Source of the DNA: a virus
Taxonomy: Duplodnaviria; Heunggongvirae; Uroviricota; Caudoviricetes
Length of the DNA: 9,234 nucleotides
IMG/VR virus record: IMGVR_UViG_2534681773_000016
Location: 1-9,234 of that record
Reading direction: 5' to 3' (one strand)
Under the pieces are notes generated by a model that saw only the letters and a list, made by a program, of their open reading frames with translations, did not search any database and was not told the origin of the DNA. A program made the translations under genes and the position numbers. Every line of letters starts with the position of its first letter. Position 1 is the first letter of the stretch. Below, in pieces: positions 1 through 9,234 of this stretch.

Positions 1-1839
1 TATGATGTTGTCAGGGCGGCGTCGCCGTCAGACCTTGCGGAAAAGCTGACACACAAACTGAAAGAGGGCTGGCAGCCATACGGCGGACCGGTTGCCATTA
101 CGCCGTACACACTGATGCAGGCGGTGGCTATTGAAGGAGATCCACAGGTCGGCCCTTCATCTGAGCCGGACTGGTTCTACGTGGTTGTGCTTGCCGGACA
201 GTCCAACGGCATGGCCTACGGTGAAGGGCTTCCGTTACCGGATTCTTACGATGCTCCGGATCCGCGCATTAAACAGCTGGCGCGCCGCAGCACGGTAACT
301 CCGGGTGGAGAGAGTTGTACGTATAACGACATCATCCCGGCTGACCACTGTCTGCATGATGTGCAGGATATGAGTACGCTGAATCATCCGAAGGCAGACC
401 TGAGCAAAGGGCAGTACGGCTGTGTCGGCCAGGGCTTACATATTGCCAAAAAACTGCTCCCGTATATCCCGAATAACGCGGGGATCCTGCTGGTACCATG
501 CTGTCGTGGTGGTTCGGCATTCACCCAGGGCGCGGAGGGGACATTCAGTGCGGACGCGGGGGCCAGCCAGGATTCGGCGCGCTGGGGTGTGGGTAAACCG
601 TTATATCAGGACCTGATTGCGCGCACTAAAGCTGCATTACAGAAGAACCCGAAAAATGTGTTGCTGGCGGTGTGCTGGATGCAGGGAGAGTTTGACATGA
701 GCGCCGCCACCTACGCACAGCAACCTGCGCTGTTTACAGCCATGCTGAAGCAGTTTCGTGCTGACCTCACTGTGTTTAACGCGCAGTGTCATGGTGGCAG
801 TGCTGCAGATGTGCCGTGGATTTGTGGTGACACGACGTATTACTGGAAAAATACATACGCTACCCAGTACGACACCGTGTACGGCGGGTATAAAAACAGG
901 GAGAGTGAGGGCGTTTATTTTGTGCCCTTCATGGCAGACGGTAACGGCGTCAATACCGCCACTAACGCGCCGGCAGAAGATCCGGATATTCCGGCATCAG
1001 GATATTACGGTGCGGCATCGAGAACGAATGGAAACCAGGTATCATCAAACCGCCCGACACATTTCAGTTCATGGGCGCGCAGGAGCATTATTCCGGATCG
1101 TCTGGCAACCGCTATTCTGAACGCAGCCGGGCGCACCTCAGCCTTCATCAGTGGTAAGGCACCGGAAATCAAACCCTCGCCCGGCGGCAACACGCCATCG
1201 GGTCCGTCTGCAGATACGTCCGTTCGCACAATCTCCCTGCTGCCGGCAGCCGGAGAGGCTGCTGCGCAGGGCTGGAGCATTAAGGATGGCGGAATTCAGT
1301 TGTCAGATGGTGTATTTAAGATCACCAAGCAGAGCAATAAAACCTGGTCCCTGACGCATCCGGTGGATGACGCAATTACCCTGCTGACACAGGGCGGCAG
1401 ACTGACCTGTAAGTTCCGCCTGTCAGGCGCACTGACCAACAATCAGTTCGGGCTGGGGATTTATCTGTATACGGATGCTCCCGTTCCTGATGGTGTGGCG
1501 ATGACGGGTACCGGTAATCCGTTCCTGATGTCGTACTTCACTCAGACCACTGACGGCAGAGTGAATCTGATGCATCACAGGAAAGCCGGAAACACGAAGC
1601 TGGGGGAGTTCGGCGATTACGGTAACGACTGGCAGACGCTGGAGCTGGTGTTCACCGCCGGCAGTGCCACGGTTACTCCGAAACTGAATGGAGTGGCTGG
1701 CCCGGCATTCCAGGTTATAAAAGACGGTCTGACACTGGGACTGAATGCGCTGACGCTGACGGATGTTACCAAAAATGCAGCGTATGGCGTTGAGATAGAA
1801 AGTCTGGTGCTGGAGATAAATGCACCGGCATCATCATAA
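1..1839 (+). CDS. nanS-p: Prophage sialate O-acetylesterase, NanS-p-like (DUF1737-like N-terminal segment + SASA/SGNH esterase + C-terminal domain); 5' end lies upstream of the window
   Basis: Frame 1 is open from base 1 to TAA at 1837-1839; the ORF track starts at M115 only because the true start is outside the window. Residues 1-40 (YDVVRAASPSDLAEKLTHKLKEGWQPYGGPVAITPYTLMQ) look like the DUF1737 segment. The GQSNGMAYGEG block at ~aa 66-76 is the SASA-family (GQSN) variant of the SGNH active-site motif. Position immediately upstream of the holin matches NanS-p genes of Stx/lambdoid prophages. Confidence 0.8.
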   Translation, partial: YDVVRAASPSDLAEKLTHKLKEGWQPYGGPVAITPYTLMQAVAIEGDPQVGPSSEPDWFYVVVLAGQSNGMAYGEGLPLPDSYDAPDPRIKQLARRSTVTPGGESCTYNDIIPADHCLHDVQDMSTLNHPKADLSKGQYGCVGQGLHIAKKLLPYIPNNAGILLVPCCRGGSAFTQGAEGTFSADAGASQDSARWGVGKPLYQDLIARTKAALQKNPKNVLLAVCWMQGEFDMSAATYAQQPALFTAMLKQFRADLTVFNAQCHGGSAADVPWICGDTTYYWKNTYATQYDTVYGGYKNRESEGVYFVPFMADGNGVNTATNAPAEDPDIPASGYYGAASRTNGNQVSSNRPTHFSSWARRSIIPDRLATAILNAAGRTSAFISGKAPEIKPSPGGNTPSGPSADTSVRTISLLPAAGEAAAQGWSIKDGGIQLSDGVFKITKQSNKTWSLTHPVDDAITLLTQGGRLTCKFRLSGALTNNQFGLGIYLYTDAPVPDGVAMTGTGNPFLMSYFTQTTDGRVNLMHHRKAGNTKLGEFGDYGNDWQTLELVFTAGSATVTPKLNGVAGPAFQVIKDGLTLGLNALTLTDVTKNAAYGVEIESLVLEINAPASS

Positions 1840-1924
1840 AAAGTGAGCCAGTCAAATGGAAGGTATCGTTAAACTCACCGGTAGTGTCAGTGGGTCGTCT
1901 GAGATGCCTGCATGAGTTATCAGA

Positions 1925-1954
1925 GCCATCAGTACTTAACTGGTGGCTTTTTTT
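1925..1954 (+). terminator. Rho-independent terminator between nanS-p and the holin
   Basis: 8-bp stem 1925-1932 (GCCATCAG) pairing with 1940-1947 (CTGGTGGC), one G-U pair, 7-nt loop, followed by T7 at 1948-1954. Confidence 0.7.
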
Positions 1955-1989
1955 ATTGTTGTCAGCTTCCGGATAACGGGAGACGGGGT

Positions 1990-2205
1990 ATGTACCAGAT
2001 GGAAAAAATCACAACAGGTGTGTCATACACCACGTCAGCGGTGGGAACGGGCTACTGGTTCCTGCAGTTGCTGGACAGGGTTTCCCCGTCTCAGTGGGCG
2101 GCAATAGGCGTGCTGGGGAGTCTGCTGTTTGGGCTGCTGACATATCTGACTAACCTGTATTTCAAAATCAGAGAGGACCGTCGTAAGGCTGCACGGGGAG
2201 AGTAA
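1990..2205 (+). CDS. S: Class II pinholin, phage 21 S21-like, with dual-start motif (Met1 at 1990, Met4 at 1999)
   Basis: 71 aa, [71 protein letters not shown]. Two TMDs and a charged C-terminus, near-identical in pattern to S21 68/71 as I remember it. GGGAGACGGGG SD-like element sits upstream of ATG 1990. The ORF-track start at 1912 is rejected because it precedes the terminator and lacks an RBS. Confidence 0.9.
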
Positions 2206-2209
2206 TTCA

Positions 2210-2524
2210 ATGACTCAAAACTATGAACTGATTGTGAAAGGGATCCGCAATTTTGAGAATAAAGTTACGGTAACTTTAGCGTTACGGGACAAAAAACGCT
2301 TTGACGGTGAAATTTTTGACCTGGACATCTCGCTGGACCGTGTTGAAGGTGCCGCGCTGGAGTTTTATGAGGCAGCAGCCAGAAGGAGCATCAGACAGGT
2401 CTTCCTGGATGTTGCTGCCGGGTTATGTGAAGAGGACGAGCTGTTGCCAGAAACGCGCCCCTGTTCAGAGGCGCGGAATACCATAAAAATTAACAGTTCT
2501 GATAACTCGATTACGTGTTGTTAG
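2210..2524 (+). CDS. Small conserved prophage protein between holin and endolysin (YdfR / DUF1327-like, from memory)
   Basis: 104-aa ORF starting 5 nt after the holin stop, with GGAGAG SD 9 nt upstream. N-terminal half (MTQNYELIVKGIRNFENKVTVTLALRDKKRFDGEIFDLD...) resembles the small ORF found at this position in E. coli Qin-type lysis cassettes. Family assignment is unverified. Confidence 0.65.
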   Translation: MTQNYELIVKGIRNFENKVTVTLALRDKKRFDGEIFDLDISLDRVEGAALEFYEAAARRSIRQVFLDVAAGLCEEDELLPETRPCSEARNTIKINSSDNSITCC

Positions 2525-2579
2525 CTTTTTGCAGTTGGCTTTCCAGTATCTTTCATTGGTAGCATCCTGATAAATATCC

Positions 2580-3113
2580 ATGAGCGCAAAAATCAAATAC
2601 GGCCTGTCAGCTGCTGTTCTGGCGCTGATTGCTGCAGGCGCGTCTGCTCCTCAGATACTTGACCAGTTTCTGGACGAAAAAGAGGGTAACCACACAACGG
2701 CATACCGCGATGGTTCCGGCATCTGGACCATCTGTCGGGGGGCCACGATGGTGGATGGAAAACCCGTTTTTCCCGGTATGAAACTGTCGAAGGAAAAATG
2801 CGACCAGGTCAACGCCATTGAGCGTGATAAGGCGCTGGCATGGGTGGAGAAAAACATCAAAGTGCCATTGAGCGAACCCCAGAAAGCGGGGATCGCGTCA
2901 TTCTGTCCGTACAACATTGGTCCCGGTAAGTGTTTCCCGTCGACGTTTTATAAACGAATTAATGCAGGTGATCGCAGGGGAGCGTGTGAGGCGATTCGCT
3001 GGTGGATTAAGGACGGTGGCAGAGACTGCCGTATTCGTTCAAACAACTGCTACGGTCAGGTATCCCGTCGTGACCAGGAGAGCGCGCTGGCGTGCTGGGG
3101 TATCGACAGATAA
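2580..3113 (+). CDS. R: SAR (signal-anchor-release) endolysin, T4-lysozyme-like (GH24), R21/P1 Lyz type
   Basis: 177 aa. N-terminal Gly/Ala/Ser-rich weakly hydrophobic SAR domain (GLSAAVLALIAAGASA) followed by the catalytic E...D...T spacing (DEKEGNHTTAYRDGSGIWTICRGAT). Pairing with a pinholin is the expected arrangement. Confidence 0.9.
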   Translation: MSAKIKYGLSAAVLALIAAGASAPQILDQFLDEKEGNHTTAYRDGSGIWTICRGATMVDGKPVFPGMKLSKEKCDQVNAIERDKALAWVEKNIKVPLSEPQKAGIASFCPYNIGPGKCFPSTFYKRINAGDRRGACEAIRWWIKDGGRDCRIRSNNCYGQVSRRDQESALACWGIDR

Positions 3114-3207
3114 GCAGAATATTTTGCTGAAAAATAAGGCATGGCCACGCGGGCGGATAACATGAAATCCTGCGAACTGGCGAAACGTAAGTGAATAAAA
3201 GTAAAAA

Positions 3208-3237
3208 CCCCGTTTGTTGGCACCAAGCGGGGGTTTT
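3208..3237 (+). terminator. Terminator-like hairpin in the R-Rz intergenic insertion
   Basis: 9-bp stem 3208-3216 pairing with 3224-3232 (one G-U), 7-nt loop, then T4 at 3234-3237. An A5 run at 3203-3207 upstream means it could act on either strand. The T-tract is short, so strength is moderate. Confidence 0.5.
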
Positions 3238-3273
3238 GTGTTTCCTGACTCCGGAAAAGTCAAAGGAGAAAGT

Positions 3274-3411
3274 GTGTTTGATTTTAGCAAACTGATTCGG
3301 GAGATTCGAGTGATGGCTGAAAAATTATCCACCTGGAAGTTCATTCTTATCTGGCTGGTGTTTGTGATTATGGCCTCCGGTTATTTCATCGGTCAGATAC
3401 GCTGGTGGTGA
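3274..3411 (+). CDS. Small single-TMD membrane protein of unknown function, inserted between endolysin and Rz
   Basis: GTG start at 3274 preceded by AAGGAG (3263-3268) with a 5-nt spacer. 45 aa with one hydrophobic helix ([22 protein letters not shown]). Stop TGA 3409-3411 lies 1 nt before the Rz ATG at 3413, suggesting translational coupling. An alternative start at ATG 3313 would give 32 aa. Confidence 0.55.
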
Positions 3412-3412
3412 A

Positions 3413-3880
3413 ATGAACCGCGTACTGTGCGTGGTCATCATTGCCCTGCTGGTGGCCTGTGGTGCGCTTAGTCTGGGGCTGAATCATTACCGTGATAACG
3501 CCATTACCTACAAAGCCCAGCGCGACAAAAATGTCAGAGAACTGAAGCTGGCGAACGCGGCAATTACTGACATGCAGATGCGTCAGCGTGATGTTGCTGC
3601 GCTCGATGCAAAATACACGAAGGAGTTAGCTGATGCGAAAGCTGAAAATGATGCTCTTCGTCGCAAGCTTGATAATGGTGGCAGGGTGCTCGTCAAAGGA
3701 AAATGCCCTGTGCCATCCTCAGCCGAAACCTCCAGCGCCTCCGGCATGGGCAATGATGCCACCGTCGAACTCTCTCCAGTTGCTGGACGAAACGTTCTCG
3801 GTATCCGGGACGGAATTATCCGCGACCAAACAGCACTGAGAACGCTTCAGGAATACATCAGGACGCAATGCCTTCGATGA
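3413..3880 (+). CDS. Rz: Rz i-spanin (inner-membrane spanin subunit)
   Basis: 155 aa with N-terminal TMD. Central segment [59 protein letters not shown] is essentially lambda Rz as I remember it; both termini differ. Confidence 0.9.
3633..3839 (+). CDS. Rz1: Rz1 o-spanin lipoprotein, embedded in the +1 frame of Rz
   Basis: 68 aa. Signal peptide with lipobox MVAGC, followed by a proline-rich stretch ([17 protein letters not shown]). Lies wholly inside Rz in another frame, the canonical embedded-spanin arrangement. Confidence 0.85.
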
Positions 3881-4054
3881 TAGCGATAATTTTACTCATC
3901 ATCCTTCACATCTGGCTCTGTAGACAGGGTGGTGATCACTTCTGGAGTGAATCCAGATTTAACATCTCATTGCTGATGCTTGATATTGAGCATCTTGCGC
4001 GCGGTAAGGAGCTGCGTTGAGATAAGAGCCAGTCATCACAAACACCAGGATTTA

Positions 4055-4077
4055 GCCTCGCATTCGCGGGGCTTTTT
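4055..4077 (+). terminator. Rho-independent terminator downstream of Rz/Rz1
   Basis: 7-bp stem 4055-4061 (GCCTCGC) pairing with 4066-4072 (GCGGGGC), one G-U, 4-nt loop ATTC, then T5 at 4073-4077. Confidence 0.65.
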
Positions 4078-4098
4078 ATTGCAACAAAGGTAAAGACG

Positions 4099-4386
4099 AT
4101 GGATGAAGAATATCGTAAAGACCTGCAATTGTGGTTTGGCCTGACGCATGCGTCGTTCTGCGTGATGCCGAGAGTATTCATGGAGGCTATGCCGCAAGAA
4201 TGGCAAGAGAAGATGGCGCAGTTGCTTTTTGAGTATGGCGACACGATCAAAACGGATGTCTGCGGAGTTCACAGCTGTTTCGTTACTGCCAAAGACGGCA
4301 ACAACCGCTTTATGAGGATGCCAGAAGATATTCTGAACTATCGTCATCCCCGGCGTGAGTTCATCGAATCATTTCTGAAGAAGTAG
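4099..4386 (+). CDS. Hypothetical protein (moron ORF A), family not recognised
   Basis: 95-aa ORF with ATG start and weak AAGG SD. Codon usage looks enterobacterial (CTG, GCG, CCG). Contains a His/Cys cluster (H17, C21, C65, H68, C70). Sits 21 nt after the terminator. Confidence 0.55.
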   Translation: MDEEYRKDLQLWFGLTHASFCVMPRVFMEAMPQEWQEKMAQLLFEYGDTIKTDVCGVHSCFVTAKDGNNRFMRMPEDILNYRHPRREFIESFLKK

Positions 4387-4479
4387 CCATTACAAAGTCT
4401 ATCTGCGGGGGGCTTGATAAAGGTGCTTTCACCTCGCTTAGCATGGTATGTTCTGACTACCAACTTTTTGGGAGGACAC

Positions 4480-4704
4480 ATGGAACTGATAAATGGACGG
4501 CCAGGCAGAGATTTTATAGTGGGAACATATACCTACTCAGAAATTAAAGATCTTAACTTCATGGCTAAGGAAGAGAAAAGAGCTCGTGAAGAGCTAAAGC
4601 ATCGGGGTTACGAATTGGCGTATATCAAGGCGGACTCTGAATGTAACGGGATGTTTGTCAGGGCGTACCGGGTCTATACTGACAAAGCGCCATCTAATGT
4701 CTAA
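4480..4704 (+). CDS. Hypothetical small protein (moron ORF B), family not recognised
   Basis: 74-aa ORF from ATG 4480 with GGGAGGA SD at 4470-4476. Highly charged (KEEKRAREELKHR). The ORF-track start at 4414 is a TTG without RBS and is rejected. GC about 44% by hand count. Confidence 0.55.
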   Translation: MELINGRPGRDFIVGTYTYSEIKDLNFMAKEEKRAREELKHRGYELAYIKADSECNGMFVRAYRVYTDKAPSNV

Positions 4705-4751
4705 ATATACCTCGGGCGGTTTTTTACGTTCATTACCGTACGCAATTACAG

Positions 4752-4779
4752 CAGGCATTCATTGAGTGCCTGTGATAAT
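4752..4779 (+). promoter_or_regulatory. Candidate extended -10 promoter overlapped by an inverted repeat, upstream of moron ORF C
   Basis: TGtGATAAT at 4771-4779 is an extended -10-like element. Inverted repeat CAGGCA (4752-57) / TGCCTG (4767-72) with a 9-nt spacer overlaps the -35-equivalent region, which is itself poor (GCAGGC). No experimental support. Confidence 0.3.
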
Positions 4780-4839
4780 GATTTATCAACGTGCTTGCAA
4801 ACGGTATTCTAGACCTCCAATTATCCTAAGGAGGTTTTT

Positions 4840-5244
4840 GTGGTTAAAAATTTAGAATACATGAAGGGGATGCTTGAGGTATTTTTGAAAGCGAAAACTC
4901 CCTTTATATCTACAAAAGACTTAGCTAATGCGGGGTACGATATCTGCTCGAATGAAGGGATGTTTCATTATCTACTTCTTATTGAGCAAGGTTATATCAG
5001 TAATAAAGATCTAATAACGGATGACATAACTAAACTGGGCTACATGCGCCATTGTGGCCATATGCTAGATATGGGTACCGACGTGCGACTATCTGCGCAG
5101 GGACAAGAATTCGCCCAGGCATTAAATGAACCTACGGTTTTTGAGAAATTAAAGTCAATGAGCGATGCCCCTTTGAGTACAATCAAAGATGTTGGGCTGG
5201 AGTTAACGAAGGCCTATTTAAAGAAGAAATTTGGCCTCGAGTAA
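4840..5244 (+). CDS. Hypothetical protein (moron ORF C), low GC; possibly a winged-helix-type small protein (DUF2513-like is a guess)
   Basis: 134-aa ORF from GTG 4840, preceded by the strongest SD in the window (AAGGAGG 4828-4834, 5-nt spacer). GC about 40% by hand count over 4801-5280, versus 50% or more in terminase and esterase genes. Confidence 0.6.
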   Translation: MVKNLEYMKGMLEVFLKAKTPFISTKDLANAGYDICSNEGMFHYLLLIEQGYISNKDLITDDITKLGYMRHCGHMLDMGTDVRLSAQGQEFAQALNEPTVFEKLKSMSDAPLSTIKDVGLELTKAYLKKKFGLE

Positions 5245-5304
5245 AATTTCTACCCTCACGAGTTAAGTTGTTTTGTGATGGTTATTCGCAATGAATATCT
5301 CTAG

Positions 5305-5331
5305 CCACTGGCATTTGCTGGTGGTTTTTTT
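5305..5331 (+). terminator. Rho-independent terminator closing the moron cassette, upstream of cos
   Basis: 8-bp stem 5305-5312 (CCACTGGC) pairing with 5317-5324 (GCTGGTGG), two G-U pairs, 4-nt loop, then T7 at 5325-5331. Confidence 0.55.
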
Positions 5332-5456
5332 ATGCGCATCCCTCGCGCACCACAAAGGGAGTCTTTCAGTAGTGATTCTGAATATCAGTGTGATAAACGT
5401 ATTTGACAATCATTATCATTTTTGGTGGGTCCTTTCCGGCGATCCGACAGGTTACG

Positions 5457-5468
5457 GGGCGGCGACCT
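5457..5468. other. cosN: cosN cohesive-end site (12-nt sequence GGGCGGCGACCT), with a lambda-like cosQ-side flank upstream
   Basis: 5424-5502 reads GGTGGGTCCTTTCCGGcGATCCGACAGGTTACG / GGGCGGCGACCT / CGCGGGTTTTCGCTATTTATGAAAATTTTCCGG. From memory this matches the lambda right end plus the first ~46 nt of the lambda left end with one mismatch. It sits ~185 bp upstream of the small terminase gene, as in lambda. Confidence 0.85.
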
Positions 5469-5505
5469 CGCGGGTTTTCGCTATTTATGAAAATTTTCCG
5501 GGATC

Positions 5506-5604
5506 CATGTCCGGTTTCTCTGCAAGTTAACTATATGAAAAATATAAAAACAGGCTGTCCGTGAACCGGACATGTGCAAAAAACGGACATGTAAACCGGA
5601 CATG
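5506..5604. repeat. cosB: cosB-like region: four copies of a 9-mer (CCGGACATG) flanking an AT-rich tract; candidate small-terminase binding sites
   Basis: CATGTCCGG at 5506-5514 (inverted) and CCGGACATG at 5566-5574, aCGGACATG at 5583-5591, CCGGACATG at 5596-5604 (direct). AT-rich tract AAAAATATAAAAA at 5539-5551 lies between them, analogous to the lambda R3-I1-R2-R1 layout but with a different repeat sequence. Additional inverted repeat AACCGG(n6)CCGGTT at 5594-5611. Confidence 0.6.
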
Positions 5605-5651
5605 ACCGGTTTTGTGCTGATTGTGAGGTAAGAGTTTTTGCGAGGTGAGGA

Positions 5652-6161
5652 GTGGCTACGCAGACTGAAGTTGCCAGGCATTTGAGTCTGACCGATCGCC
5701 AGCTTCGCAGATTGCAGAAATTACCGGGTGCCCCGGTCTCGAATAAGCGAGGGCAACTGGATCTGGATGCCTGGCGCGATTTTTACATATCGTATCTGAG
5801 AAGAAGTAAAAACGATGTGCCTGATGGCGATAGCGAAGAAGACTATGAAGAGAAATTGCTTATTGCCAGATGGGAACTGACAGCAGAACAGGCTGTTACA
5901 CAGCAGTTAAAAAATGAGGTGTCAAAAGGAAAACTGATTGACACCGGGTTCTGTATTTTTGCCCTCAGTAAGCTGGCAATGGCGTTATCCAGTACGCTTG
6001 ATTCCATCCCTTTATCCATGCAGCGACAGTTTCCTGATTTAACACCGCGCCATCTTGACCATCTGAAAACCCTTATTGCTAAGGGGGCAAATCAGTGTGC
6101 GCGGGCAGGGGATAAATTACCGGATTTACTTGATGAATATATCAGAGCAACAACTGAATAA
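5652..6161 (+). CDS. Terminase small subunit (lambda gpNu1 family)
   Basis: 169 aa from GTG start with GAGGTGAGGA SD. C-terminal two thirds align to lambda Nu1 from memory (TGFCIFALSKLAMALSSTLDSIPLSMQRQFPDLTPRHLDHLK vs TAFCTFVLSRIAGEIASILDGLPLSVQRRFPELENRHVDFLK). The N-terminal HTH region is divergent. Confidence 0.9.
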   Translation: MATQTEVARHLSLTDRQLRRLQKLPGAPVSNKRGQLDLDAWRDFYISYLRRSKNDVPDGDSEEDYEEKLLIARWELTAEQAVTQQLKNEVSKGKLIDTGFCIFALSKLAMALSSTLDSIPLSMQRQFPDLTPRHLDHLKTLIAKGANQCARAGDKLPDLLDEYIRATTE

Positions 6162-8060
6162 TATGATGAGCGCTGTCACAACTGCATTACAGCCCCTGAT
6201 AAGGGCATTGCCGGTGACGCCAGTTGAATGGGCTGATCAAAATTATTATCTGCCTAAAGAATCTTCATATGGTGAGGGCGAATGGAAAACGCTGCCATTC
6301 CAGATCGCCATCATGAACAGCATGGGGAATGATCAGATCCGCACTGTTAATCTGATTAAATCTGCCCGTGTTGGCTATACAAAGATGTTGCTGGGGGTGG
6401 TCGGGTATTTTATTGAGCATAAATCCCGAAACAGTCTGCTTTTTCAGCCCACGGATTCTGCCGCTGAAGATTTTATGAAGTCTCACGTGGAGGCGACGAT
6501 TCGGAACGTGCCATGCCTGAAAGACCTTTCCCCATGGCTGGGTCGTAAACATCGTGACAATACTCTCACGCTGAAACGCTTTTCATCGGGCGTCGGTTTC
6601 TGGTGCCTGGGCGGCGCTGCCGCCAAAAACTACCGTGAAAAATCCGTGGACGTGGTCTGTTATGACGAGCTTTCCTCGTTCGAACCGGATGTTGAAAAAG
6701 AGGGTTCGCCAACCCTGCTGGGGGATAAACGTATTGAGGGCTCTGTATGGCCAAAATCCATTCGCGGCTCGACGCCTAAAATCAAAGGCTCCTGCCAGAT
6801 CGAAAAAGCCGCTAACGAGTCGGCACACTTCATGCGTTTTTATGTGCCCTGTCCGCACTGTGGGGAGGAGCAGTATCTGAAATTTGGCGATGATGCCTCG
6901 CCTTTCGGTCTTAAGTGGGAGAAGAATAAGCCAGAAAGTGTTTTCTACCTTTGTGAGCATCATGGCTGTGTGATCCATCAGTCTGAGCTTGACCAGAGTA
7001 ACGGGCGGTGGATCTGTGAAAACACGGGCATGTGGACCCGTGACGGCCTGATGTTTTTCAGCGCCCGGGGTGATGAAATTCCGCCGCCGCGCTCCATCAC
7101 TTTCCATATCTGGACGGCGTACAGTCCGTTCACCACCTGGGTACAGATTGTCTATGACTGGCTGGATGCACTGAAAGATCCCAACGGCCTGAAAACCTTT
7201 GTGAACACCACGCTGGGCGAGACCTGGGAAGAGGCCGTGGGCGAAAAACTCGATCACCAGGTGCTGATGGATAAGGTTGTGCGTTACACGGCGGCGGTGC
7301 CTGCCCGGGTGGTTTATCTGACGGCGGGCATTGACTCGCAGCGAAACCGTTTTGAGATGTATGTCTGGGGATGGGCTCCGGGAGAGGAAGCCTTTCTGGT
7401 GGATAAAATCATCATTATGGGGCGTCCCGATGAGGAAGAGACGCTGTTACGTGTGGATGCGGCGATCAACAAAAAATACCGCCATGCAGACGGAACCGAA
7501 ATGACCATTTCCCGTGTCTGCTGGGACATCGGGGGGATCGATGGCGAAATCGTTATCAGAGGTCAAAAAAACACGGTGTTTTCCGGGTGCTGCCGGTAAA
7601 AGGCGCATCTGTCTATGGCAAGCCGGTGATCACCATGCCAAAAACCCGCAATCAGCGGGGCGTGTATCTGTGTGAAGTGGGGACGGACACCGCAAAAGAA
7701 ATTCTCTATGCCCGTATGAAAGCCGATCCCACGCCTGTGGATGAAGCCACGTCGTATGCCATCCGTTTTCCTGATGATCCGGAGATTTTTTCGCAGACAG
7801 AGGCGCAGCAACTGGTCGCGGAAGAGCTTGTGGAGAAGTGGGAAAAAGGAAAGATGCGTCTGCTGTGGGATAACAAAAAGCGGCGTAACGAAGCGCTGGA
7901 CTGCCTGGTGTATGCCTACGCGGCATTACGTGTGTCCGTGCAACGCTGGCAGCTTGATCTGGCTGTACTGGCAAAATCCCGGGAAGAAGAGACGACCCGG
8001 CCAACCCTGAAAGAACTGGCAGCGAAGCTGTCCGGAGGAGTGAATGGTTACAGTCGCTGA
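6133..8060 (+). pseudogene. Terminase large subunit (lambda gpA family) interrupted by a 1-nt frameshift (frame 1 to frame 3) near 7555-7572
   Basis: Frame 1 from ATG 6133 (MNISEQQ..., overlapping the Nu1 end as in lambda) carries Walker A KSARVGYTK and aligns to gpA up to ...CWDIGGIDGEIVI, then hits TAA at 7597-7599. Homology continues in frame 3 (RSKKHGVFRVLPVKGASVYGKPV ... to TGA 8058-8060). Combined length is about 642 aa versus 641 for lambda gpA. The true start is ATG 6133, not the ORF-track start at 6076. Confidence 0.75.
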
Positions 8061-8250
8061 ACTGCAGGCGCTGCGTCAGGCGCGCCTTGATTTATTAACC
8101 GGTAAACGGGTGGTGTCTGACCAGAAAGATGGTCGCAGAATTGAATATACGGCGGCTTCTCTGGATGAGCTTAACCGGGCGATCAATGATGCGGAGTCGG
8201 TACTGGGGACAACCCGGTGTCGCCGTCGTCCGCTGGGAGTGAGATTATGA
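8044..8250 (+). CDS. W: Head-tail joining / head completion protein, lambda gpW family
   Basis: 68 aa. LTGKRVVSDQKDGRRIEYTAASLDEL matches lambda gpW [26 protein letters not shown]. Start overlaps the end of the terminase frame-3 segment. Confidence 0.85.
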   Translation: MVTVAELQALRQARLDLLTGKRVVSDQKDGRRIEYTAASLDELNRAINDAESVLGTTRCRRRPLGVRL

Positions 8251-9234
8251 AACGAACGCCTGTCCTGATTGATGTGAACGGCGTTCCGCTTCGTGAGAGT
8301 CTCAGCTACAACGGGGGCGGTGCAGGATTTGGCGGGCAAATGGCTGAGTGGTTGCCACCGGCGCAGAGTGTCGATGCGGCCCTGCTGCCCGCGTTGCGTC
8401 TGGGGAATGCCCGGGCAGATGATCTGGTGCGCAATAACGGAATAGCGGCTAATGCGGTGGCCCTGCATAAGGATCACATTGTCGGGCATATGTTTCTGAT
8501 CAGCTACCGTCCGAACTGGCGCTGGCTGGGGATGCGGGAGACCGCAGCAAAAAGCTTTGTCGATGAGGTGGAGGCGGCCTGGTCGGAATACGCCGAAGGG
8601 ATGTCTGGCGAGATCGACGTGGAAGGAAAACGCACGTTCACGGAATTTATCCGTGAAGGTGTGGGCGTTCATGCGTTTAACGGCGAAATCTTTGTGCAGC
8701 CGGTCTGGGATACGGAAGCCACGCAGTTATTCCGTACGCGTTTTAAAGCCGTGAGTCCGAAACGGGTGGACACGCCTGGACACGGTATGGGGAACCGTTT
8801 TCTGCGGGCCGGTGTGGAGGTCGATCGATATGGCCGTGCCGTCGCGTACCATATCTGTGAGGATGATTTTCCGCGCTCCGGGAGTGGACGATGGGAACGG
8901 ATCCCGCGTGAACTTCCCACCGGGCGTCCGGCCATGCTGCATATTTTCGAGCCGGTGGAGGACGGGCAGACCCGTGGGGCTAATCAGTTTTACAGCGTCA
9001 TGGAACGGCTGAAGATGCTCGATTCCCTGCAGGCAACACAGCTTCAGTCGGCCATAGTGAAAGCCATGTATGCAGCGACGATTGAAAGTGAACTTGATAC
9101 CGAAAAGGCCTTTGAATATATCGCCGGCGCGCCACAGGAGCAGAAGGATAATCCGCTTATTAATATTCTGGAGAAGTTCTCCAGCTGGTATGACACGAAT
9201 AACGTGACACTGGCGGTGTCAAAATTCCGCACCT
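8247..9234 (+). CDS. B: Portal protein, lambda gpB family; 3' end lies beyond the window
   Basis: Frame 3 is open from ATG 8247 (ATGA overlap with the W stop; GGAG SD) to the window end. Absent from the ORF track because no stop occurs in the window. Translation MKRTPVLIDVNGVPLRESLSYNGGGAGFGGQ ... HIFEPVEDGQTRGANQFYSVMERLKMLDSLQATQLQSAIVKAMYAATIESELDT aligns closely with lambda gpB. Confidence 0.9.
   Translation, partial: MKRTPVLIDVNGVPLRESLSYNGGGAGFGGQMAEWLPPAQSVDAALLPALRLGNARADDLVRNNGIAANAVALHKDHIVGHMFLISYRPNWRWLGMRETAAKSFVDEVEAAWSEYAEGMSGEIDVEGKRTFTEFIREGVGVHAFNGEIFVQPVWDTEATQLFRTRFKAVSPKRVDTPGHGMGNRFLRAGVEVDRYGRAVAYHICEDDFPRSGSGRWERIPRELPTGRPAMLHIFEPVEDGQTRGANQFYSVMERLKMLDSLQATQLQSAIVKAMYAATIESELDTEKAFEYIAGAPQEQKDNPLINILEKFSSWYDTNNVTLAVSKFRT

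Follow-up and report, generated by a model that had tools for sequence, protein, structure and literature searches.

Transcription terminators have already been described in and around the late operons of phages. Morons carry a promoter and a terminator of their own (PMC8065619), a layout for which PMC4104026 cites Juhala et al. 2000. In HK97 and HK022, as summarised in these two papers, the terminators flanking morons are factor-independent and accompany cargo of lower G+C content that lies between late genes. In the P22-like phage L, Rho-independent terminators are predicted within the operon of a single antiterminated promoter, at the end of the procapsid module; they have been suggested to stop transcription that lacks antitermination, and their roles are stated to be unknown (PMC8022706). 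Finally, the intrinsic terminator tR' (StxS in Shiga-toxin (Stx) phages) precedes the late genes and is overridden by Q in lambda and Stx phages, and in lambda it protects S, R and Rz from transcription out of pR' (PMC7547250). Here we analyse four hairpins, T1 to T4, in a 9,234-nt stretch of viral DNA (positions 1 to 9,234 of IMG/VR record IMGVR_UViG_2534681773_000016, hereafter the window), which is the late region of a lambdoid Escherichia coli prophage whose genes all lie on the + strand. We regard it as likely that all four are intrinsic terminators on the sense strand of the late operon, each placed at a joint between exchangeable modules.

The modules follow one another in the order nanS-p, T1, the lysis genes S, YdfR and R, T2, a 45-amino-acid open reading frame (ORF) with Rz/Rz1 and a 50-amino-acid ORF, T3, ORFs A to C, T4 and, lastly, cos with the packaging genes. 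The hairpins that separate them, together with the corresponding matches of a terminator consensus scan, are:

1922-1957, + strand: T1, stem GCCATCAGT/ACTGGTGGC at 1925-1947, loop ACTTA, T-run from 1948-1954 onward; scan match 1922-1950, + strand, 12 pairs, tail TTTTATTGTT
3208-3243, + strand: T2, stem CCCCGTTTG/CAAGCGGGG, interrupted T-tract (G)TTTTGTGTTT; scan match 3208-3232, + strand, 9 pairs, tail GTTTTGTGTT
4054-4083, + strand: T3, AGCCTCGC-ATTC-GCGGGGCT followed by TTTTATT, where the spanin block meets ORF A; scan match 4054-4073, + strand, 8 pairs, tail TTTTATTGCA
5303-5336, + strand: T4, AGCCACTGGC-ATTT-GCTGGTGGTT followed by TTTTTAT, closing the ORF C module on its 3' side; scan match 5303-5326, + strand, 10 pairs, tail TTTTTATGCG

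An earlier note on this DNA had proposed four hairpins followed by T-runs at these places on the coding strand, and the scan, the folding and the conservation described below all bear it out. The four sites are the top four of the 16 terminator-like matches found by the scan (shuffled sequences lead one to expect 8.4 ± 2.8), and their predicted folding energies are -17.0, -16.3, -15.2 and -13.9 kcal/mol for T1 to T4, with z-scores against dinucleotide shuffles of -4.5, -2.1, -3.6 and -2.8, respectively. Each folds less stably on the opposite strand because of its G-U pairs, and a U-rich tract directly follows the stem in T1 (TTTTTTTATT), T3 (TTTTTATT) and T4 (TTTTTTTAT), that of T2 being weaker. 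By sequence and fold, T1 to T4 would thus pass for ordinary factor-independent (intrinsic) terminators. The number of sites is itself weak evidence, since a cruder scan of both strands returned 11 against 5.7 ± 2.2 in shuffles, a mild enrichment. Placement and conservation in relatives make the stronger argument: all four lie on the gene strand within the approximately 1.1 kb (12%) of the window that is non-coding, for which our own arithmetic gives a chance of about 0.12^4 x 1/16. Across relatives, pairing is maintained by compensatory changes at five pairs in T1, varies by wobble only in T2, is invariant in T3 and shows a single G-U to G-C change in T4.

The four sites were compared with approximately 250 related loci. 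The claim that the terminators divide the region into modules held up, each of them coinciding with a recombination breakpoint in tens to hundreds of related phages. The idea of a single late transcription unit also fits, as the genes are co-oriented and the closest relative, E. coli UPEC69, has a gene for a Q-type antitermination protein 3.3 kb before the esterase gene and in the same orientation. UPEC69 is the best complete-genome match to the window (94% identity, with O104:H4 strains reaching up to 92.6%), the gene order of the window is preserved in relatives, and in UPEC69 methyltransferase, tRNA and iraM genes stand between the Q gene and nanS-p; no tRNA genes were found within the window.

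T1 ends 33 nt before the start of the holin gene. Among 80 viral contigs encoding a holin 97-100% identical to that of the window, every locus that reaches far enough upstream has a hairpin with a T-rich tail approximately 30-60 nt ahead of the holin start, and the genes 5' of this hairpin are variously nanS-p variants, a gene for an unrelated acidic protein of approximately 100 amino acids or, in enteropathogenic E. coli (EPEC) E2348/69, the PasA region. The alignment comprises 18 distinct variants of a 12-pair helix, with 93.9% of cells paired and compensatory double changes at five pairs; its covariation score was reached by 0 of 500 shuffles, and registers slid along the alignment pair at no more than 72%. 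In approximately 300 public Stx phage genomes, homology to the intergenic region of the window starts at 1920 or 1942, at the hairpin. In Sakai, the T1 of prophage Sp9, which is almost the same as that of the window, is found at approximately 1,776,771-1,776,805 of NC_002695.2, and the T1 of Sp5 (VT2-Sakai) at approximately 25,231-25,265 of NC_000902.1. The sampled matching Stx phage records carry no terminator or RNA annotation at T1, and no feature of any kind is annotated at the T1 or T2 hairpins in the matching phage records sampled.

Extending the holin ORF N-terminally so that it runs across T1 (1912-2205) was considered and rejected: a difference of one T in a run breaks the frame in near-identical relatives, and the Pfam holin model (64 positions) matches residues 5-67 of the 71-amino-acid protein, which contradicts the longer ORF. 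The GenBank start of the VT2-Sakai holin S (L173, NC_000902.1 25223-25513) lies 26 codons 5' of MYQM, so that a T1-type hairpin is translated; this start is probably mis-called. We also looked to the K-12 prophages Qin and DLP12 for homologous sites, which would have made the K-12 transcript maps usable, and found none, the upstream regions of their holin genes being different. Directly 5' of the dual-start holin codons, a stem-loop, CTTCCG-GATAA-CGGGAG (1966-1982), is kept in relatives and resembles the start-site-selection structure of lambda S; judged by energy alone, it is weak.

T2 marks the second joint. Wherever it occurs, in 34 distinct contexts, it lies a constant 95 nt past the endolysin stop codon, and its distance to Rz ranges from approximately 260 to 1350 nt across related loci. 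The upstream 150 nt are common to 34 of the 34 contexts and the downstream 150 nt to 11 of the 34, and three alternative, unrelated sequences start immediately after the T-tract. Relatives of T2 differ in a variable loop and in stem changes that are mostly wobble, and in approximately 270 Stx phages homology to the window stops at 3199-3208. Variants with an antirepressor (ant) gene, such as Sakai Sp9, are without T2 and have another hairpin approximately 30 nt further on (GGCACC-GTAAT-GGTGCC-TTTGTCATTT, -16.8 kcal/mol). The position that the earlier note gave for a terminator after the endolysin therefore stands, with a correction of detail: 95 nt past the stop, T2 divides the lysis cassette itself, leaving S-YdfR-R on one side and the 45-amino-acid ORF with Rz/Rz1 on the other.

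Two further features surround T2. Because of an A-tract on its 5' side, the hairpin read on the minus strand (3198-3245) is followed by TTTTTACTTTTATT, with a weaker stem (-12.4 kcal/mol), and T2 may accordingly be predicted to act bidirectionally and to stop leftward transcription as well. In the spacer between the endolysin stop and T2, a short palindrome at 3136-3152 varies among relatives in a paired way (GCATGGCCACGC, GCGTGGCCACGC, CGTTGGCCAACG), as would be expected of a conserved small hairpin or of a site bound by a protein.

At the third joint the hairpin is followed closely by a gene:

4099-4386, + strand: ORF A, complete, 95 amino acids, phrog_3527, with a highly conserved ribosome-binding site (RBS), AAAGGTAAAGACGATG

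In 66 contigs encoding relatives of ORF A, the arrangement GCCTCGC-NNNN-GCGGGGC-TTTTTA plus the RBS is retained before ORF A behind at least eight unrelated upstream groups, most of which end in spanin genes of different families. All 14 stem bases are identical where the DNA of ORF A itself is only 68-73% identical, and the loop varies. T3 is nevertheless not simply part of ORF A, and stays with either side: one related locus (L167) has lost exactly ORF A and keeps the hairpin on the Rz side, and in another (L168) the hairpin is followed by a different gene. Furthermore, in eight related loci the T-run of a T3-type hairpin directly joins the segment that precedes cos (window 5323-5375, in one of them to 5501), which identifies ORFs A, B and C as inserted DNA with a T3-type hairpin on one side and the pre-cos segment on the other. 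We had also entertained the idea that ORF A is the 3' fragment of a 233-amino-acid gene, as phrog_3527 is matched at positions 139-230; it was dropped because stand-alone homologues are the usual form, tblastn finding full-length ORF A homologues of approximately 95 amino acids in 27 phage records.

The earlier note was accurate about the distance from T3 to the start codon of ORF A (21 nt) and about the lack of room for a promoter between them, and no promoter candidate was found in those 21 nt. In lytic siphophages such as Sasha, a sigma-70 promoter (TTGACG-17-TATCTT) occupies exactly the place of T3 before the ORF A homologue, with the same RBS, and the homologue heads a small operon that has a promoter to itself. 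A promoter where the window has a hairpin fits expression of ORF A by read-through only. For the other role suggested in the note, T3 as a 5' stabiliser, the evidence speaks neither for nor against. The same note had put T3 after Rz/Rz1; the position is right, but the hairpin lies 175 nt past the Rz stop codon, with the 50-amino-acid ORF (3868-4020) intervening. In temperate phages ORF A mostly comes directly after spanin genes of unrelated families, with a near-invariant RBS, and it may be lysis-associated. In one viral contig, a T4-like hairpin (94% identical to 5300-5333) lies in tandem with a T3-type hairpin, 111 nt upstream of it.

Between T3 and the packaging genes, the following features can be distinguished:

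4480-4704, + strand: ORF B, 74 amino acids, phrog_6100; its module begins at approximately 4389 (CATTACAAAG), a left boundary seen in L167
4713-4727, + strand: CTCGGGCGGTTTTTT behind ORF B, the degenerate remnant of a terminator, with a T-run and no usable stem
4771-4779, + strand: extended -10-like site TGTGATAAT, read from the sequence, candidate promoter of ORF C
4840-5244, + strand: ORF C, 134 amino acids, phrog_585
5457-5468, + strand: lambda-type cohesive end GGGCGGCGACCT (cosN), which we take to be identical to the left end of lambda

The earlier note had treated ORFs A to C as one moron cassette ended by T4. Here the comparison led elsewhere: the three ORFs are separate modules, absent from most holin-related loci and each with boundaries of its own, and T4 belongs to ORF C alone. 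T4 accompanies ORF C in three loci whose downstream DNA is something other than cos (L166, L168 and L169); two of them, L168 and L169, have GGTGGC for GGTGGT in its stem, the change from a G-U to a G-C pair mentioned above. Homology to the DNA behind T3-type hairpins of other phages starts at the T-run of T4 and continues downstream. The ORF C module begins approximately 85 nt before its start codon, and TGTGATAAT is kept in L168 and L169, where homology begins approximately 15 nt upstream of it. The ORF B module has an 85-nt leader before the gene. As to a downstream terminator, T4 follows ORF C, the remnant follows ORF B and none directly follows ORF A. We considered the remnant as a fifth terminator and rejected it, for it has a T-run and no stem (z = 0; -4.2 kcal/mol); in its place L169 has a complete GCCGCC-TAC-GGGCGG-TTTTTT, of which the window retains the 3' half only. 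The G+C content is 0.36-0.44 for ORF C, 0.50-0.55 for the lysis genes and approximately 0.50 for ORF A, which is not deviant.

The proposed mechanism builds on this arrangement. During lytic growth, Q-modified polymerase coming from pR' would ignore T1 to T4 and transcribe the whole unit, a transcript that must cross cosN (5457-5468) to reach the packaging genes. In a lysogen, unmodified polymerase starting at cargo promoters or spurious sites would halt at the next hairpin, and the holin and endolysin, spanin and packaging genes would thereby be spared. ORF A would be expressed essentially through antiterminated read-through, because it has no promoter and its start codon follows the hairpin by 21 nt, and ORF C, possibly also ORF B, would be built like a classical moron, with a promoter, the gene and a terminator. 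We infer termination, read-through by Q and insulation as a selected function from lambda biology; the hairpins, their placement, their conservation (including the covariation of T1) and their coincidence with mosaic breakpoints were observed directly.

Set against the described systems, the locus combines traits of each. Like the moron-flanking terminators of HK97 and HK022, the hairpins here are found with cargo between late genes, and ORF C, T4 and the extended -10-like site fit the moron layout, although the promoters in the window are candidates only. Unlike morons, ORF A has a terminator in front of it and no promoter, and T1 and T2 flank core lysis genes. With phage L the window shares predicted Rho-independent terminators inside a late operon, but it has its joints among lysis and cargo genes rather than at the end of a procapsid module (PMC8022706). 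With tR' it shares an intrinsic terminator ahead of late genes; tR', however, comes immediately after pR'/qut and gives rise to a defined short RNA, whereas T1 to T4 lie far downstream in a window that contains no pR'. A position within a few hundred nucleotides of the late promoter and qut, as for tR', does not apply to them, the Q gene of the relative being 3.3 kb upstream, and no similarity between tR' and T1 to T4 was detected with Rfam.

Several observations count against this picture. Several of the T1 variants found in relatives end in a poor U-tract, CCCC-TCTTGTTGTTG being one case, so that termination strength probably varies among them and something besides termination may maintain the hairpin. 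In the window, an extra G separates the T2 stem from its T-tract (GCGGGGG TTTTGTG, against GCGGGG TTTTGTG in relatives), and with this G and the interrupted tract T2 may be a weak terminator. No significant covariation was found for T3, a test made uninformative by the invariant stem, and its conservation could come from recent spread or recombination instead of selection for pairing. ORF B has weak promoter candidates only, and the promoter-like sites of ORFs B and C are weak enough to be missed by a consensus scan, a two-hexamer search having returned no + strand site in 4080-4840. The window itself includes neither Q nor pR' nor the promoter of nanS-p. Finally, the gene for the large terminase subunit is split by a 1-nt deletion at 7550-7560 (ORFs 6076-7599 and 7587-8060), where the window has ATCGT-TATCAG and the intact UPEC69 copy ATCGTCTACCAG; the O104:H4 copy is annotated as frameshifted too, without the deletion at this position. 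The prophage may be defective for packaging, or the frameshift may be a sequencing error; in a defective prophage the elements would perhaps no longer be under selection.

An alternative that we hold to be unlikely is that the hairpins mainly serve at the RNA level, either as the 3' Hfq-binding module of small RNAs (sRNAs) or as 5' or 3' hairpins that protect messages from nucleases. Examples would be an sRNA derived from the 3' untranslated region (UTR) of nanS-p and ending at T1, a short RNA running from the promoter-like + strand site that the consensus scan places at 3959-3987 to T3, and protection of the holin or ORF A message. The nanS-p 3' UTR does fold into two hairpins, of which T1 is the second (z = -2.5), T1 variants with weak U-tracts keep their hairpin, and T3 accompanies ORF A and its conserved RBS, although it is also present without ORF A. 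Prophages of EPEC and enterohaemorrhagic E. coli (EHEC) moreover encode Hfq-bound sRNAs at equivalent intergenic sites: in EPEC, PasA and PasC map to the gap that separates the sialate esterase gene from the holin gene (PMC8550237 table S6; bioRxiv 10.64898/2026.05.13.724894), and in Sakai Sp9, Sp10 and Sp12 HnrS (EcOnc10-12) is encoded immediately behind Rz, on the opposite strand (PMC13502914). These are the same two intergenic hot spots, and the sRNAs end in intrinsic terminators, but they occupy the opposite strand and their sequences are absent here.

Each candidate sRNA was accordingly set aside. PasA runs on the minus strand (NC_011601, 743499 to 743415) within an insert of approximately 300 nt in E2348/69 that the window is without, and T1 was rejected as the terminator of PasA or PasC; the T3 region was likewise rejected as HnrS/EcOnc12, for which sequence and strand differ, the HnrS region of Sakai Sp9 being unrelated to the post-Rz sequence of the window. 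The esterase-holin intergenic region of the window is nearly identical to that of Sp9, and published tables of peaks from Hfq cross-linking and analysis of cDNA (CRAC) list no Sp9 peak at the equivalent position. A scan of the whole window against Rfam 15 at E <= 1 gave no match, though the AgvB, AsxR, Esr41 and STnc100 models were included, and none of the known prophage sRNAs (PasA/PasC, AgvB/AsxR, HnrS, StxS, Esr41 and STnc100) matches the window. A terminator and the 3' end of an sRNA can, in any case, be one and the same.

Quite improbable, in our estimate, is that the hairpins are passive baggage, that is, terminators that arrived with cargo or scars of recombination, with no current role. 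In favour of this are the remnant after ORF B, the extra G that spoils T2 and the frameshifted terminase of a prophage that may be decaying. GC-rich hairpins of the T3 type also recur in unrelated phage contexts, the exact T3 motif having at least 120 matches in viral contigs, mostly in such contexts, against 72 for a control hairpin with its G-U pair shifted by one position. The recurrence implies that such sequences arise or spread easily, and it tempered our view of the T3 stem as a uniquely special sequence; the counts make it a common terminator solution with no special signal. Yet the compensatory changes in T1 indicate selection for pairing, a hairpin precedes the holin in every locus examined, and T3 keeps an invariant stem beside coding DNA that has diverged by approximately 30% and is found in HF4s, an isolated viable phage. 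Loose consensus scans give approximately 6-8 such sites in shuffled sequence, but the notion that chance alone produced the four seen here is extremely improbable and effectively refuted by the conservation data, as they are the four best matches, all intergenic, on the gene strand and conserved, with T1 covarying.

Read as intrinsic terminators at module joints, T1 to T4 are unannotated instances of a known design, since terminator-flanked morons and terminators within late operons have been described before; they refine that design and leave current understanding unchanged. By analogy with the described systems, the four-site arrangement probably keeps the lysis genes silent until the antiterminator is made. 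Homologues of T1 and T2 occur in hundreds of Stx phages, and if T1 terminates efficiently, the cargo upstream of it (nanS-p or, in Stx1 phages, the toxin gene with its own promoter) could be expressed in the lysogen without triggering holin synthesis, which would have a bearing on how toxin is released without lysis. That terminators and mosaic breakpoints coincide exactly also illustrates cleanly how late regions exchange cargo. Existing Term-seq data could test the design, and a data set for EHEC Sakai is available (GEO, cited in PMC7547250). More tentatively, and with considerable doubt, one may imagine that the hairpins act as recombination linkers for swaps of late modules, that in hundreds of Stx and related prophages the T1 family is a selected safety valve, set immediately before the pinholin gene, that keeps lysis uncoupled from the expression of cargo (nanS-p, or Stx1 transcribed from a promoter of its own), and that T3 and the invariant RBS make ORF A a strictly Q-gated accessory of the lysis cassette.

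The remaining genes of the window are:

1-1839, + strand: nanS-p-like SASA carbohydrate esterase (Pfam SASA PF03629 and DUF6645; a SASA family esterase in the annotation of relatives), 5' end truncated by the window edge, stop codon at 1837-1839
1990-2205, + strand: class II (P21-type) pinholin S with the dual start MYQM (Pfam PF04971, 9e-33)
2210-2524, + strand: YdfR/DUF1327 protein (Pfam PF07041)
2580-3113, + strand: endolysin (phage lysozyme, Pfam PF00959) with a hydrophobic N-terminal segment resembling a signal-arrest-release (SAR) domain
3274-3411, + strand: 45-amino-acid small membrane-type ORF (phrog_6632, 5.5e-20)
3413-3880, + strand: Rz i-spanin (Pfam PF03245), with the Rz1 o-spanin (Pfam PF06085) embedded at 3633-3839
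3868-4020, + strand: 50-amino-acid ORF overlapping the 3' end of Rz (phrog_11822, 2e-36), hypothetical in relatives
downstream of cos, + strand: genes for the small and large terminase subunits, head-tail joining and portal proteins

The N-terminus of the endolysin is presumably of the SAR type, judging from its sequence and from the established case of R21. The 45-amino-acid ORF, which lies between T2 and Rz, has a hydrophobic core and a stop codon abutting the Rz start; found in only some relatives, it is a possible unrecognised accessory of the lysis cassette. Between cosN and the gene for the small terminase subunit, CGGACATG occurs four times in the segment 5506-5604, three times in direct orientation and once inverted, where 0.36 occurrences would be expected; by their sequence these copies look like cosB-type sites, putatively for the small terminase subunit.

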